Below are positions 10,640 through 63,231 of a stretch of 64,000 nt of DNA, piece after piece. The stretch is from a virus, in IMG/VR virus record IMGVR_UViG_3300037264_005839; one strand, 5' to 3'. Every line of letters begins with the position of its first letter. The first letter of the stretch is position 1. The translations under genes were made by a program, and so were the position numbers. The notes beneath the pieces were generated by a model. That model was not told where the DNA came from, searched no databases, and worked only from the letters and a program-made list of their open reading frames with translations.

Positions 10640-10871
10640 GTATAAGGGGGGATGCCGGTCGAAAGGACCACCATCCTCCTCACAGGAGAAGAGGCACGTC
10701 GTCCGACACGGCGTGCCTCTCGAGATCGGCCGGAGGGGAAGGAGCTCGACTTGTGGTTCTCGTCGAGAGTTCCTTCCACCTTTGCGCTGTAGGGTTGGGG
10801 CGGGGGGTCGCGAGGCCCTCCGTCCCTGACCCTCTTTTCACGAACACTCTACCCCCACGACGAACAAGACA

Positions 10872-11159
10872 ATGGCCCAACCACAGACCGAAACAGAACG
10901 GAAAGCCAAGCTCGACGACACGATGCGCCGATTCGAGGAGCGCATGGCCGCAAACGAGGAGAAGTCCCGGCCGAAGCGTAGCCGCCAAGAGGTGCTCAAT
11001 GCGGCGATCGACGCCGTGCAGGAGCAGCTCGTCAAGGAACGCGAAGCCCTCCAGAAGAGGTTCCACATGGCCGCGCAGGAACATGCCCAACGCGAGACGG
11101 TCGAGAGTCTCGAGTGGCTCGTCGTCGATCTCAAGCGCATCCGCGACGAAGAGGTATGA
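10872..11159 (+). CDS. hypothetical coiled-coil protein
   Basis: 95-aa ORF downstream of the TTTTCACGAACACTCTACCCCC element. Confidence 0.5.
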   Translation: MAQPQTETERKAKLDDTMRRFEERMAANEEKSRPKRSRQEVLNAAIDAVQEQLVKEREALQKRFHMAAQEHAQRETVESLEWLVVDLKRIRDEEV

Positions 11160-11284
11160 GTCACTGGCACGAGGCACCGGATGTCCAGGGCTTCCGGGGC
11201 ATCTCCGTAATCGGTGCAGAGGCAACCACCAAGAAGTTCGCCGCCGAGGCGATGATTTTGAAGATCAGGGAGAACGGCACATGA
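11156..11284 (+). CDS. hypothetical small protein
   Basis: 42 codons; ATGA overlaps at both ends. Confidence 0.35.
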   Translation: MSHWHEAPDVQGFRGISVIGAEATTKKFAAEAMILKIRENGT

Positions 11285-62900: not shown

Positions 62901-63177
62901 CGTCGTCGTCCCCCTCAATCGAGAAGTCCACGTGGGAGTAGCGTTCGGGCGAACTCGGGGCACGGATCTTCTCCACCTCCGGGCCCTCGCTTTTCTGCCC
63001 GACCCACTGTTGGTAGAGGCGCGCCTGCTCGTCCTTGGGGAGCGAAACAAACTTGACCTCGTTGCCCGTCGACGGGTTACGGAACTTCCTCCCCTTGACC
63101 GCGTCGAGGAACTCCTTCCGGTAAGCTGCTTGCCGCGCCCAAGCGGCTGCGATGTGGCCGCTGCCCATCCTGAACAC
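56953..63177 (-). CDS. giant modular polyvalent-type protein (repeated modules, two HExxH zincin-like domains, C-terminal ART-like region)
   Basis: 2074 aa; GTG start; repeat AAAW..R..(K/R)F(R/K)NPxTGNxVxFxSLPKxEQ at about 63032-63097, 60983-61039, 58083-58163; HEATH at 61645-61659 and HEMTH at 60487-60501. Confidence 0.7.
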   Translation of the reverse strand: MFRMGSGHIAAAWARQAAYRKEFLDAVKGRKFRNPSTGNEVKFVSLPKDEQARLYQQWVGQKSEGPEVEKIRAPSSPERYSHVDFSIEGDDDDDSSATDDPPRRGRAHMTDTKLMRRVMGVGNGSHRDRLLDLAGMGALARQLRRVEVTVDWDEDTTSFYVNGSGDDGLYFERTIQYSNPPGKRSQSRPDRITNFKIETDKDAPEGIGTRMLMGQVLAAEREGFQTIETEAQGSPGSEWSGYYVWPRLGYDGDIEKETLAMMSPALRREIEKIARKDGGKPRFSHLMMLPKGRSWWKENGHSVDLSFDARAGSRSREVLEGYVRERARKDGKSPTDYMLRRGAKTDAPGMDDDDEEILATVWDAARRHLDEAPRVAATWMRRAVRPIPVDKEAVRAKATKLSEKLLKQLEAAPPDRPVRERQVWVQDSMPVRSVQGEDLDAIVVVRAGPAGGPGPYIDSGGFGWHQPTGRPVVIVSLNGHYTPKDLARSLRGSPELIQDMIYTTLLHEATHASDVRRQSGYQVSGAGEQYTTDDLDRYYNDPHEVRAFMQQVVDETERAFGDRQETVLEKFGESRGLKMILGASDTWREINEHLHEDNRRKMIKAVHRALSDRREKARGKASEPSDDFWQWMGRTVSGVPNPNPDGRERTISPATLRGYAESGDHRDRARRIVERYQAQYKKRDKERDVAAAWVHRVVAKQTELSEFRQEVESRKFRNPDTGNDVLFVSLPKQEQARIFAEWRRKQRGGDPKPERERGLVEIDREKARDTARRMTEEIGKWKVRAPDEPIGDRFLPGGGGPITYGRMFETSVKGRPRPFPVQLGVGEHGEGLWRAGRHFVSGGGVQFRHLGEKDEGFPISLRINLNPKLTYRELQDPKAASRIEQEIYSVMIHEMTHARDVIETPAQVRRRRKKDIPERPGPHDSPEESEQKEREHFQGREREYYNRPSEARAFKRQVAEEFRRELEKIYKVQEFKHERAKEKGEDIVEDPDWISMDADSVMTMLERSPTWDRVREWLTPANRRKYLETVASIVRTFKEQHGGKVATRKIAAAWLRKAISEKYVRPLKKVDTDDLPFDHLFEGRRRMVVDPEDHGGLGASEPDSAKDLEKFLRANGALKDDEQVDWKQGYVIDGSGKTKSKVGKAFQNAVKNFVGGDREFYANRLKVQQDLAKGESPLQRTLGIGRDQLQALTGMGHLLVEGFPTSQIWEEIEKFGVPSPDSWKRIKEVADRFAALSPDERDAKTKEHEAEYHRDAEVSEDFRKQYWAARGLFQTHNKTKSGDEADWLMRHFREWAERTDDFYESDDAEPLRKMHELGSTIDPGRFEELRSLQEIEKKRQSYDLWRSIRGQDLVVVLSRDPVDVLRMSDYPKAVQAIQSCHSEGGSEFQCAIEEAEEGGMIAYVVRKSDVEGRDLDEGELFEDQGRDVEGIKPYARLRLRRFENDTGDGLEVAVPETTTYGADFPDFVQAITNWARGAQPEFVSGDAGYSPRPRDWRLTGGTYQDNTSSDLFNNFLGRDEDDRYGREPTEDEYDPYGEGFTLEDSPYYNPDREDEDEDEGEAEVASKAVQPWRHTDHMTDFWGWMKENHPQIRNPNPRGTKEHISPATLKGYARGATIYSRSARELVGRYLSRYQQERSKHEEGQPQGDVRASRIVSAWLLKVAKSSFSEWVKGKRFKNPATGNEVLFSSLPKPEQEKIRASWGQRAEDSAPAKQGPAADIARSPVHQSAVFGRVVDRRTPKDDRHQERLSSAMQDVSERAEKIDHDAKLGSWERKKLYEEGPSILARYIRTGRGLTDEEALKVLATHGRYQGDTTDLYRGITGVTSEQVEGLLGFVPAEDTPVAVEYTDGRFLQPAQSLASSWSASSKVAHDFAARGVGENQWNVLFVARTDEEEDHGNFVAVHYDHLGAHDQEQNEDSIYERAFQMALKDDPDALEGFDSWEDIQSSDEDTDAARKAVEDNYQYAVEELGMEGEMDNPEGFEAEEEMLGVGPVRVGRVYVFRKPGELTRMLGEAENEELDVLTRMAGEDEEDTDKTPKRVKVKKEPFRIDRFVVPADQVFPQKASPPLPKKS

Positions 63178-63231
63178 GGGCCCCTATAGAACGGTCCGTG
63201 CGCATCGTGAAAATCGAAGGATATCTTGTCT

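Follow-up and report, generated by a model that had tools for sequence, protein, structure and literature searches.

Introduction

The closest described counterparts of the element reported here are phage operators, such as the 13-bp stoperators of Cluster A mycobacteriophages, for example L5 (gp71), and the 17-bp C1 operators of phage P1. As in these systems, the sites analysed here are short, asymmetric and nearly invariant, many are dispersed over the genome, with almost all in short intergenic regions near or just past the ends of genes, and a single protein encoded by the phage presumably reads them. An asymmetric site in many intergenic copies, the hallmark of stoperators, is found here as well, whereas the sequence is unrelated (the stoperator reads GGTGGMTGTCAAG) and the copies are fewer, amounting to ~10 in 72 kb. 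Two further differences from stoperators are that the orientation relative to transcription is not uniform and that nothing points to a temperate phage: the Pfam tables contain no integrase, and the family of the candidate regulator described below is absent from 185,579 bacterial genomes, with no prophage copy.

Promoter-associated boxes provide a second point of comparison. In the middle promoters of phage T4, the MotA box lies 11–13 bp from the −10 element, centred at −30, and in one orientation. The likeness resides in a 9-bp asymmetric box that replaces the −35 element upstream of a normal −10 element and is used by a phage protein together with the host RNA polymerase; here, by contrast, distance and orientation vary, so that the arrangement is not that of a MotA box, and no homolog of MotA or AsiA is present among ten proteins scanned (Pfam, PHROGs). 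Similarly, the −35 elements of ECF sigma factors (GGAACTT, TGAAAC), which are read by region 4, are matched by the region-4 fold of the candidate protein and by GTGAAA in the reversed motif, but the candidate carries a second helix-turn-helix (HTH) and a KOW-like domain rather than region 2, and the motif lacks a −10 partner at a set distance.

The transcription programmes of uncultivated huge phages are almost wholly uncharacterised. Together with conserved −10-only promoters of leaderless type (GGTAGAGT, TATAAG) and a co-conserved, unusual regulator, the motif provides a testable regulon hypothesis for the clade, and both motif and promoters can serve as practical markers for transcription units and for gene-call correction in such genomes. 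Literature searches returned nothing but primer coincidences for the motif sequence and no relevant match for huge-phage promoter motifs. The motif, TTTCACGA, is a hitherto undescribed element of an ordinary phage cis-regulatory kind.

Results and Discussion

An asymmetric 8-mer is concentrated in intergenic DNA

The window analysed is a 64,000-nucleotide stretch of the IMG/VR record IMGVR_UViG_3300037264_005839, within which 12 exact copies of TTTCACGA/TCGTGAAA are present, compared with 1.9 expected from whole-window dinucleotide shuffles, none of which ever attained this count. Gene positions were taken from deposited gene tables in place of ad hoc calls that contained false antisense ORFs, for example 14509–16479(−). 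With the gene table thus corrected, 8 of the 12 copies lie in the 3.6–3.8 kb (5.9%) of the window that is intergenic, where TTTCACGA is the top-ranked 8-mer and enriched >60-fold; dinucleotide shuffling of the intergenic DNA (2000 shuffles) yields a mean of 0.125 copies and a maximum of 2. Since the intergenic GC content of 59.8% equals that of the genome, the excess is not due to composition. The four coding copies (3508, 4180, 18999 and 22727) are in-frame codon strings, and upstream of the window, 8.2 kb of the contig contain two further copies, both of them intergenic. An earlier note on this DNA had proposed a recurrent intergenic element from eight listed copies; all eight are recovered and the element is real, with positions shifted by 1–9 nt from those listed (the string placed at 15283–15296, for instance, lies at 15290–15303).

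A position matrix extends the 8-mer to an isolated, asymmetric 11-mer, A-[T/G]-TTTCACGA-[A/T], beyond which the flanking sequences of the copies are unrelated to one another, and no partner element is found at a constant distance within ±45 nt. Variants of TTTCACGA with one mismatch occur in the intergenic DNA of the window at chance level only. Such near-exact invariance of the 8-mer is unusual for operators and speaks against assigning it to that class. The core had been described as a near-palindrome, a description that is weak because the flanks are asymmetric, and the palindrome TTCGTCGAA (13766–13774), which had been regarded as a related element, occurs twice in the window, compared with 0.97 expected, is not conserved in relatives and has no support as a component of the element.

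Spacing and orientation relative to promoters

Promoter assignments throughout are −10-like hexamers read by eye. The copy ATTTTCACGAT at 15290–15300(+) (core, 15292–15299) begins 2 nt past the TAG stop codon of 14953–15288 and ends 6 nt before TATAAG (15306–15311), which itself lies 7 nt before the ATG at 15319. At 46453–46463(−) (core, 46454–46461), the motif is located 12 nt upstream of TATAAC (46436–46441), 8 nt before the ATG at 46427; the block GAGTATAACGAGrG recurs before 30244, where it is not accompanied by the motif. The start codon of LemA (ATG 51581) follows the copy at 51549–51559(+) (core, 51551–51558) after 22 nt, with no −10-like hexamer in between. At 56930–56940(−) (core, 56931–56938), 14 nt past the stop codon of the giant gene, the motif is positioned 17 nt upstream of TATGGG (56908–56913), followed by a leader with GGAGG and by the ATG at 56880 of a fibre-like gene.

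Other copies reside in divergent regions. The copy at 35595–35605(−) (core, 35596–35603), between 35289–35510(−) and 35627–36037(+), reads on the plus strand TCGTGAAA-10 nt-TAGAAG-7 nt-ATG 35627; the minus-strand gene starts 85 nt away. The arrangement of this copy, TCGTGAAActc-N7-TAGAAK, is repeated before the methyltransferase gene on L016, from the same phage, which is preceded by TCGTGAAA-10-TAGAAT-8-GTG. The copy at 37199–37209(−) (core, 37200–37207), between 36695–37159(−) and a newly recognised gene at 37274–37651(+), is located 40 nt from the ATG at 37159. Between the giant gene and the GH25 gene, the copy at 63204–63214(−) (core, 63205–63212) lies 16 nt upstream of TATAGG (63183–63188), 14 nt before the ATG at 63168, and on the opposite strand 9 nt before TATCTT and the ATG at 63232. 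In addition, a degenerate copy, TTCGTGAA, at 11739–11746(+) overlaps the TGA stop codon of 11281–11745 and lies 22 nt upstream of TAGAGT within GGTAGAGT (11767–11774), the promoter of a DUF1508 gene; it is the ortholog of an exact copy at L023 2732, which reads TCGTGAAA-20 nt-TAGAGT. Across sites, the motif lies 22–85 nt from the annotated start codon, roughly in keeping with the 20–50 nt given in the earlier note.

Downstream of the motif, the nearest −10-like hexamer is found at 6, 10, 12, 16, 17, 20–22 or 28 nt, with the spacing of 20–22 nt to TAGAGT shared by two orthologous sites. Promoters near the motif are devoid of a −35 element and, in many cases, of a leader. Two apparent companions were discarded: GTAGAAG as a −10 element consists mostly of a TAG stop codon and/or a GAAGG Shine-Dalgarno sequence, and half of the occurrences of TCTATGG as a common element are mere start-codon context.

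The motif is oriented as TTTCACGA toward the gene at 15292, 46454 and 56931, and as TCGTGAAA before the L016 methyltransferase gene as well as in L018, L022, L023 and L031. Between genes of the same direction, 3–4 copies in this phage are co-oriented and one is anti-oriented, and all copies in the four relatives are anti-oriented. Opposite orientations are observed even at an equal distance of 6 nt, namely TTTCACGA-6-TATAAG in the window and TCGTGAAA-6-TATAAG in L022/L023, at non-orthologous promoters. A uniform orientation, suggested by a first count of 9 of 10 co-oriented copies, was dropped, as sites in divergent regions are uninformative and recognition of the methyltransferase gene showed the site at L016 3177 to be anti-oriented.

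These arrangements bear on whether the motif serves as an initiation signal of the promoter, in which case a host or phage sigma factor would use it as a −35-like box, or a sigma-appropriating activator would bind it in the manner of the T4 MotA box, and the motif would mark a temporal class of promoters. TTCACG is similar to TTGACA, the reverse reading GTGAAA(C) is similar to ECF −35 boxes such as TGAAAC, and the candidate protein has an ECF sigma region-4 fold. Moreover, a −35-like spacing (16–17 nt) is seen solely at the giant-gene (TATAGG) and fibre-gene (TATGGG) sites, where motif, spacing and hexamer are kept in the related contig L017 and where the hexamers, each without the final T, may need help. 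The other spacings (6, 10, 12, 20–22 and 28 nt) and the use of both orientations, even at the identical 6-nt distance, do not fit such an element, however, and no second element at a fixed distance was found. A consensus scan for TTGACA-N16–18-TATAAT revealed no canonical sigma-70-type promoter at the three regions scanned (10836, 56931 and 63205), the regulator lacks sigma region 2, and no phage RNA polymerase was found in the Pfam tables of the window. The varying spacing, the two orientations and the missing fixed partner rule out, as a general reading, the −35-like sigma-factor element envisaged in the earlier note, and we consider it unlikely that the motif is read in initiation at all.

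The motif is retained in related phages

In related metagenomic phage contigs of 59–72% GC, 7 intergenic motif sites are present in the 3.3 kb from loci with gene tables, compared with 0.08 expected, and L022 and L023 contain additional copies. At the giant-gene promoter in L017, the motif, the spacing and TATAGG are conserved, with the sequence upstream of the motif diverged. The fibre-gene site is likewise conserved in L017 (9067+) with respect to motif, spacing and TATGGG, and the block cgTCTATGGGCTCyCCCC of this promoter is also kept in L018 (72% GC). The intergenic region orthologous to that of the 15290 site, a spacer between the stop codon of the 14953 homolog and the promoter, contains cTTCACGAAt in L026, the inverted TTCGTGAAA in L031 and no motif in L022. 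At the conserved TATAAG promoter that follows the Leu/Phe-tRNA transferase gene, the motif is present in L022 and L023 and absent from the window, L026, L027 and L031. The motif therefore comes and goes at orthologous promoters.

More distant comparisons delimit this distribution. L019 and L020, more distant relatives with respect to the giant protein, contain the 8-mer in coding sequence only, and LR745208.1, a 485-kb phage that is the sole INPHARED match of the regulator (40% identity), has no excess of the motif. Megablast of INPHARED returned no match, and scans of IMG/VR with close proteins returned unrelated fibre fragments or nothing. The NDT-NUDIX protein (33696–34838) was abandoned as a probe, being widespread, including in Myxococcota, and reaching an unrelated huge phage that lacks the motif.

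A site for a host transcription factor or nucleoid protein that is exploited by the phage would be expected to have the same look of dispersed single sites near promoters. The exact 8-mer, however, is retained in phage genomes of 59, 61, 63 and 70–72% GC, which probably have different hosts if phage GC tracks that of the host, as we infer it does. This spread points to a reader that moves with the phage rather than to one host, and to our knowledge TTTCACGA is unlike the actinobacterial and proteobacterial consensus sites for DnaA, LexA, CRP, GlnR and PhoP. We regard recognition by a host factor as distinctly unlikely.

A terminator-associated copy

The copy at 10834–10844(+) (core, 10836–10843) is ambiguous, in that its TTTT forms the T-tract of an intrinsic terminator, the stem of which (10791–10833; 19 bp, −37 kcal/mol) ends 1–2 nt before the T-run. 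The stem is kept with compensatory changes in L022, L023 and L031, where the orthologous terminators end in TTTTCATGA, TTTTTCACCA and TTTTCACGC, respectively. Given these differing ends, only TTTTCAY is conserved at this position, and the copy, which had been listed as a motif site like the others, is better described as the T-tract of a conserved terminator.

This copy raises the question of whether the motif acts in termination, as a terminator U-tract or tail, or as RNA, in the form of a processing or translation signal in mRNA leaders. In relatives, several copies coincide in part with the stop codon of the preceding gene, or directly adjoin it, as TCG-TGA, and many RNA-repair and RNA-processing enzymes are encoded by the phage, both of which would suit such a role. 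When all sites were folded, the terminator tail failed as a general explanation, as a strong hairpin abuts the T-run at only 1 of 18 sites (10836) and the other 17 have none. Five sites of the window and contig are located in divergent promoter regions that no transcript enters from upstream, and the motif occurs on either strand relative to genes, so that the RNA would differ between sites. The tRNA and Rfam scans of the window were both empty. An action at the level of RNA or termination is thus highly improbable.

It is scarcely credible that the motif arose by chance or from composition, or that it is a functionless relic of duplicated intergenic cassettes, for although the longer block GAGTATAACGAG common to the promoters at 30244 and 46427 indicates that such cassettes do spread, the flanks of the motif are unrelated, intergenic and genomic GC are equal, and the >60-fold enrichment recurs in diverged relatives at orthologous and non-orthologous positions.

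A putative operator and its candidate reader

We suggest, with moderate confidence, that a sequence-specific DNA-binding protein of the phage lineage recognises A-[T/G]-TTTCACGA-[A/T] in double-stranded DNA as its operator. The motif is non-randomly concentrated in intergenic DNA, both in the window (8 versus 0.125) and in relatives (7 versus 0.08), and it is kept while its flanks diverge, with gain and loss at single promoters. The intergenic, promoter-near and conserved placement of the motif is consistent with the site for a phage transcription factor envisaged in the earlier note. Against an operator, no exact intergenic copy is found within 15–20 kb around the regulator gene in L026, L027 and L033, all of which carry the regulator, the L027 and L033 loci contain no intergenic motif copy, and no conserved copy is present at the regulator's own conserved promoter.

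Single copies just upstream of −10 hexamers would occupy the stretch otherwise taken by sigma regions 3 and 4 of RNA polymerase, and the bound protein may thereby govern how active some of the transcription units are, including those for the giant protein, the fibre-like protein, GH25, LemA, a Zn-ribbon protein and the DNA methyltransferase, among others. Occlusion by a repressor would best fit the free orientation and the variable centre of the site (roughly −21 to −44), and at the two promoters whose −10 hexamer is poor (TATAGG and TATGGG), activation could occur as well. In L018, two copies in tandem precede a hairpin that has a T5 run and are 48–70 nt away from the −10-like hexamer, an arrangement that a simple occlusion model does not fit.

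The most likely reader of the putative operator is the regulator encoded at 13077–13736(−), a protein of 219 amino acids comprising an ECF sigma region-4-like HTH, a second HTH and a KOW-like β-barrel, in agreement with the HTH-HTH-KOW make-up proposed for it previously. Its N-terminal domain superposes on region 4 of SigD, SigL, SigC and SigE with deviations of 0.5–1.3 Å over ~50 residues, and its C-terminus resembles a NusG-like KOW domain. Because sigma region 2 is missing, the regulator is not itself a sigma factor. The two HTHs could allow a monomer to cover ~1 helical turn of asymmetric DNA. The family comprises 84 homologs (42–100% identity), in which both recognition helices are invariant, and is found on contigs of up to 235 and 618 kb. 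Within the loci of six syntenic relatives (L026, L027, L022, L023, L031 and L033), the regulator is 56–83% identical, and homologs are present in the motif-carrying L022, L023, L026 and L031.

A more speculative version, to which we assign little probability, is that the regulator acts as a DNA-tethered NusG-like factor, which would bind TTTCACGA beside −10-only promoters while its KOW domain would recruit or hold one of the partners of NusG-type KOW domains, such as ribosomal protein S10, Rho or RNA polymerase. Such a regulator would directly link promoter choice in huge phages to translation or termination, a mode of control of which we know of no description.

In place of the regulator, the motif could also be read by a host factor or by a different DNA-binding protein of the phage. 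A second candidate, named in the earlier note, is the protein of 73 amino acids encoded at 35289–35510(−), a region beyond those that the loci of the relatives span; it displays a weak match to Sigma70_r4_2 (E = 0.0045, below the Pfam cut-off).

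Enrichment and shape of the intergenic motif

The recurrent 8-mer TTTCACGA (reverse reading TCGTGAAA) is a predicted phage cis-regulatory protein-binding site in an undescribed clade of huge phages. The window contains 12 copies of it, where 1.9 would be expected, and no other intergenic 8-mer is as frequent. Eight copies lie within 3.8 kb of intergenic DNA, compared with a mean of 0.125 and a maximum of 2 in 2000 dinucleotide shuffles of that DNA, the GC content of which (59.8%) equals that of the genome. The four coding copies are codon strings in frame, one of which (22727) is kept as coding sequence in the related locus L026. 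Two further copies, both intergenic, are found in the 8.2 kb preceding the window on the same contig (L016:1-8255). The eight copies listed in an earlier note are all present in the sequence, several of them displaced by 1–9 nt from the positions it gave; TTCGTCGAA, in which it saw a palindrome akin to the motif, has two copies (0.97 expected) and is not conserved in the relatives.

The intergenic counts are based on deposited gene tables corrected at three places: ORF 14509-16479(-) was rejected as spurious, 37274-37651(+) is a real gene without annotation, the product of which has two CxxCxGxG (DnaJ-type zinc finger) motifs, and 10652-10792(+) is a remnant ORF of 46 aa. The start of 37274-37651(+) lies 5 nt downstream of GGTAGAGT; the call deposited for the other strand (37348-37947) seems to be spurious.

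Alignment of 14–16 intergenic copies from four genomes yields the 11-position consensus A-[T/G]-TTTCACGA-[A/T], with no information in these copies outside the 11 positions or at any fixed distance within ±45 nt. The motif is asymmetric, since its left flank (A, T/G, TTT) has no mirror on the right; the near-palindrome noted previously is restricted to TTCACGAA, in 11 of 16 copies (about two thirds). Intergenic one-mismatch variants are not commoner than chance, and thus the motif is essentially all-or-none. At the end of the transferase gene in L023 (5190-5240), the motif lies inside a 12–13 bp inverted repeat, GCGATTTTCACG-N13-CGTGAAAAATCGC, giving two inverted copies approximately 25 bp apart.

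Placement at putative promoters

The motif lies just upstream of −10-like hexamers, from which its distance varies, and it can face either way. Within the window, TTTCACGA precedes TATAAG by 6 nt at 15292 (followed after 7 nt by ATG), TATAAC by 12 nt at 46454 (8 nt to ATG), TATAGG by 16 nt at 63205 and TATGGG by 17 nt at 56931. As TCGTGAAA, it stands 10 nt before TAGAAG at 35596 (7 nt to ATG) and, at 3177 of L016, 10 nt before TAGAAT (8 nt to GTG), ahead of a C5 DNA methyltransferase gene. In the relatives, TCGTGAAA is found 6 nt before TATAAG (L022, L023), 20 nt before TAGAGT (L023 2732, with a degenerate ortholog in the window at 11739) and 17 nt before TACAAG (L031). A consensus scan of three motif sites returned no sigma-70-type promoter. 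The methyltransferase gene itself (FSGIGG and GFPC motifs; L016 3209-4030(+), ~4–5 kb before the window begins) has a leaderless GTG start and is absent from the deposited gene calls.

Across orthologous promoters the motif is gained and lost. At the post-transferase TATAAG promoter it is present in L022 and L023 only, and in the short spacer behind the stop codon of the 14953 homolog it is present in the window, L026 (cTTCACGAAt) and L031 (inverted) and absent in L022. The spacer copy is kept although the downstream gene varies, encoding a Zn-ribbon protein, NUDIX or Thg1.

Conservation in related phages

Related loci were reached through the giant protein (L017, L018) or through the regulator encoded at 13077-13736(-) (L022, L023, L026, L027, L031, L033). 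L017 (giant protein 82% identical, GC 63%) keeps the motif at both orthologous sites, one ahead of the giant gene and one ahead of the fibre-like gene, with the window's own spacings of 16–17 nt to TATAGG and TATGGC, and the DNA upstream of the motif has diverged. L018 (43% identical, GC 72%) has four copies against 0.06 expected from composition; each is either intergenic or overlaps the stop codon of the gene before it. Intergenic copies are also present in L022 (regulator identity 69%, GC 59%) and in L023 (66%, GC 70%), which comes from the same sample as L018. In the remaining syntenic loci the regulator is 83% (L026), 72% (L027), 62% (L031) and 56% (L033) identical; L026, L027 and L033 have no exact intergenic copy within the 15–20 kb surrounding the regulator gene, and the more distant L019, L020, L021 and L024 show no enrichment. 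The five relatives for which gene tables are deposited have 7 copies in their 3.3 kb of intergenic DNA, where 0.08 would be expected, and another 6 within 78 kb of coding sequence. In several of the relatives' copies the TGA within TCGTGA is the stop codon of the upstream gene, which may explain the orientation preference in those compact genomes.

Interpretation of the motif

These features agree best with a site in double-stranded DNA that is read by a protein that the phage lineage encodes, as one of the two readings in the earlier note had it, because the motif is a strict asymmetric 11-mer, occurs in single copies confined to promoter-bearing intergenic DNA, has no fixed partner, distance or orientation, turns over at individual promoters and is retained across genomes 13 GC points apart. 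The motif centres lie at about −21 to −44 from the inferred transcription starts. A protein sitting there would be in the way of RNA polymerase, a position suggestive of repression; where the −10 hexamer is poor and the spacing −35-like, as at two of the promoters, the protein could activate instead.

The closest analogues in behaviour are phage operators, T4 MotA boxes and ECF −35 boxes. L5 stoperators and P1 C1 operators are dispersed asymmetric phage operators, but differ from the motif in sequence, orientation rule and lifestyle. MotA boxes have a fixed spacing and orientation that the motif does not share. The likeness to ECF −35 boxes lies in the modelled fold of the candidate reader; however, sigma region 2 is missing from the regulator, and the motif lacks a fixed −10 partner.

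A site for a host factor is less likely, given the GC spread of the motif-bearing genomes. The other reading in the earlier note, a general −35 or sigma element, fails on spacing and orientation. A terminator element is contradicted at 17 of 18 sites. Only at 10836 does the motif come immediately after a strong hairpin (19 bp, −37 kcal/mol), and the orthologous hairpins of L022, L023 and L031, with other stem sequences, end in TTTTCATGA, TTTTTCACCA and TTTTCACGC, respectively; this copy thus serves as T-tract to a conserved intrinsic terminator, and at best it is an ambiguous member of the motif. Action at the RNA level is contradicted by strandedness and by the copies in divergent regions.

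The conserved hairpin is followed by an opposite-strand conserved −10, GGTAGAGT or GGTAGGAT, aimed back into it (both strands; window 10786-10855, L022 ~9128-9190, L023 ~3872-3935, L031 within 13092-13394), an arrangement that may represent a small antisense RNA or a promoter coupled to a bidirectional terminator.

Candidate reader proteins

The regulator is our inferred candidate for the protein that reads the motif. Its residues 7-53 match Sigma70_r4/r4_2 (E = 6e-15), a second HTH lies at residues ~82-113, and the family profile matches NusG and Spt5 KOW domains weakly but consistently at residues 153-209. In a confident AlphaFold model (pLDDT 92), the first domain aligns in structure with those domains of SigD, SigL, SigC and SigE that bind −35 DNA (0.5–1.3 Å), and the last with NusG/Spt5 KOW domains, an unusual architecture of ECF sigma region-4 fold, second HTH and NusG/Spt5-like KOW barrel. 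Across 29 family members of 43–100% identity, the two helices presumed to recognise DNA, SQPTVNYR and SQGAVRHW, do not vary. A two-HTH monomer could read about one turn of asymmetric DNA, in agreement with the motif size. The family (84 members, 42–100% identity) is found on metagenomic contigs only, reaching 235 kb and 618 kb, and in none of 185,579 bacterial genomes. The regulator's own promoter has no conserved motif copy. L017 350-1477 encodes a 375-aa paralog sharing only the second HTH (66% identity).

The second candidate, the 73-aa r4-like protein (35289-35510(-)), gives a weak match (E = 0.0045), and the relatives' loci do not cover its region. Its gene has no Shine-Dalgarno sequence of its own and its start is overlapped by a 15-codon upstream ORF (35492-35541(-)) with a GTG start and a strong AGGAGG Shine-Dalgarno, so arranged that translational coupling is possible.

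Putative promoters with a −10 element only

The window phage and its relatives also have putative −10-only promoters, 4–11 nt before start codons without a Shine-Dalgarno sequence, none with a conserved −35 element. GGTAGAGT, a −10-type TAGAGT hexamer that as ACTCTACC has five intergenic and no coding copies, precedes the regulator gene in the window, L022, L023, L026, L027 and L033, and the DUF1508 gene in the window, L026 and L027; at the corresponding position of L023 it stands ahead of an extra 136-aa ORF (2286-2696) preceding the DUF1508 homolog. Genes 4715 and 37274 are likewise preceded by it. The copies lie at 4702-4709(+), 11767-11774(+), 13749-13756(-), 37261-37268(+) and 10847-10854(-) in the window, and at L022 7098, L023 601 and 2705, L026 1357, 9985 and 12124, L027 9982 and 11455, and L033 9982. 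Before the regulator and DUF1508 genes it is kept clade-wide, as far as 56% regulator identity. From sequence, GGTAGAGT looks like a class of leaderless −10-only promoters, which hints at a host using leaderless mRNAs.

After the Leu/Phe-tRNA transferase gene, TATAAG is found in five of six lineages examined and TATAGA in L031. The putative TATAAGgggggATG promoter right behind this gene (10637-10792) drives just the 46-aa ORF in the window; L022 and L023 have a gene of 300–400 aa there with the same 3′ end (ctttgYGCTGTAGGG), and the window copy looks like a deletion remnant.

The IF3 gene is preceded by TGCGTATAAT in the window and L017. The homolog (window 53029-53711(-), L017 11144-11768) has a conserved putative TGCGTATAATGGG promoter and a conserved leader of ~90 nt, an arrangement that recalls bacterial infC leaders, which are autoregulated. 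Downstream of the giant-gene cluster, the block cgTCTATGGGCTCyCCCC (window 56897-56915(-), L017 ~9090, L018 11836-11856) is almost unchanged between genomes of 61% and 72% GC, a conservation exceeding that of the surrounding proteins. At 48268-48348, upstream of 47644-48267(-), the arms TTATACCCCG...CGGGGTATAA form a perfect 10-bp inverted repeat, and GGGGTATAA(C/A) recurs before 49436(-).

Gene content of the phage

The window is coding dense (GC 61%), and tRNA and Rfam scans found no tRNA genes or Rfam matches in it. Logan contigs of SRR11849544 and a 66-kb JGI contig carry identical genes; there are no nucleotide relatives among 50,697 deposited phages, and the sole deposited relative at the protein level is LR745208.1, a 485-kb uncultured phage. 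The gene content is typical of huge phages, with RtcB, Thg1, CinA, NUDIX proteins, metallophosphatases, Leu/Phe-tRNA transferase, DHFR, SIR2, the IF3 homolog, LemA, a GH25 lysin and a 2071-aa protein. This giant protein (56953-63168(-)) has no Pfam domain on record and only two clear homologs among 5.8 billion proteins (82% and 43% identity); it contains several KFRNPxTGNxVxFxSLPxxEQ repeats and a HEMTHA metalloprotease-like motif. A nucleoside 2-deoxyribosyltransferase–NUDIX fusion (33696-34838(+)) has >1600 homologs, including some in Myxococcota genomes (Nannocystaceae, 58% identity), possibly a hint at the host or a gene that is widely exchanged.
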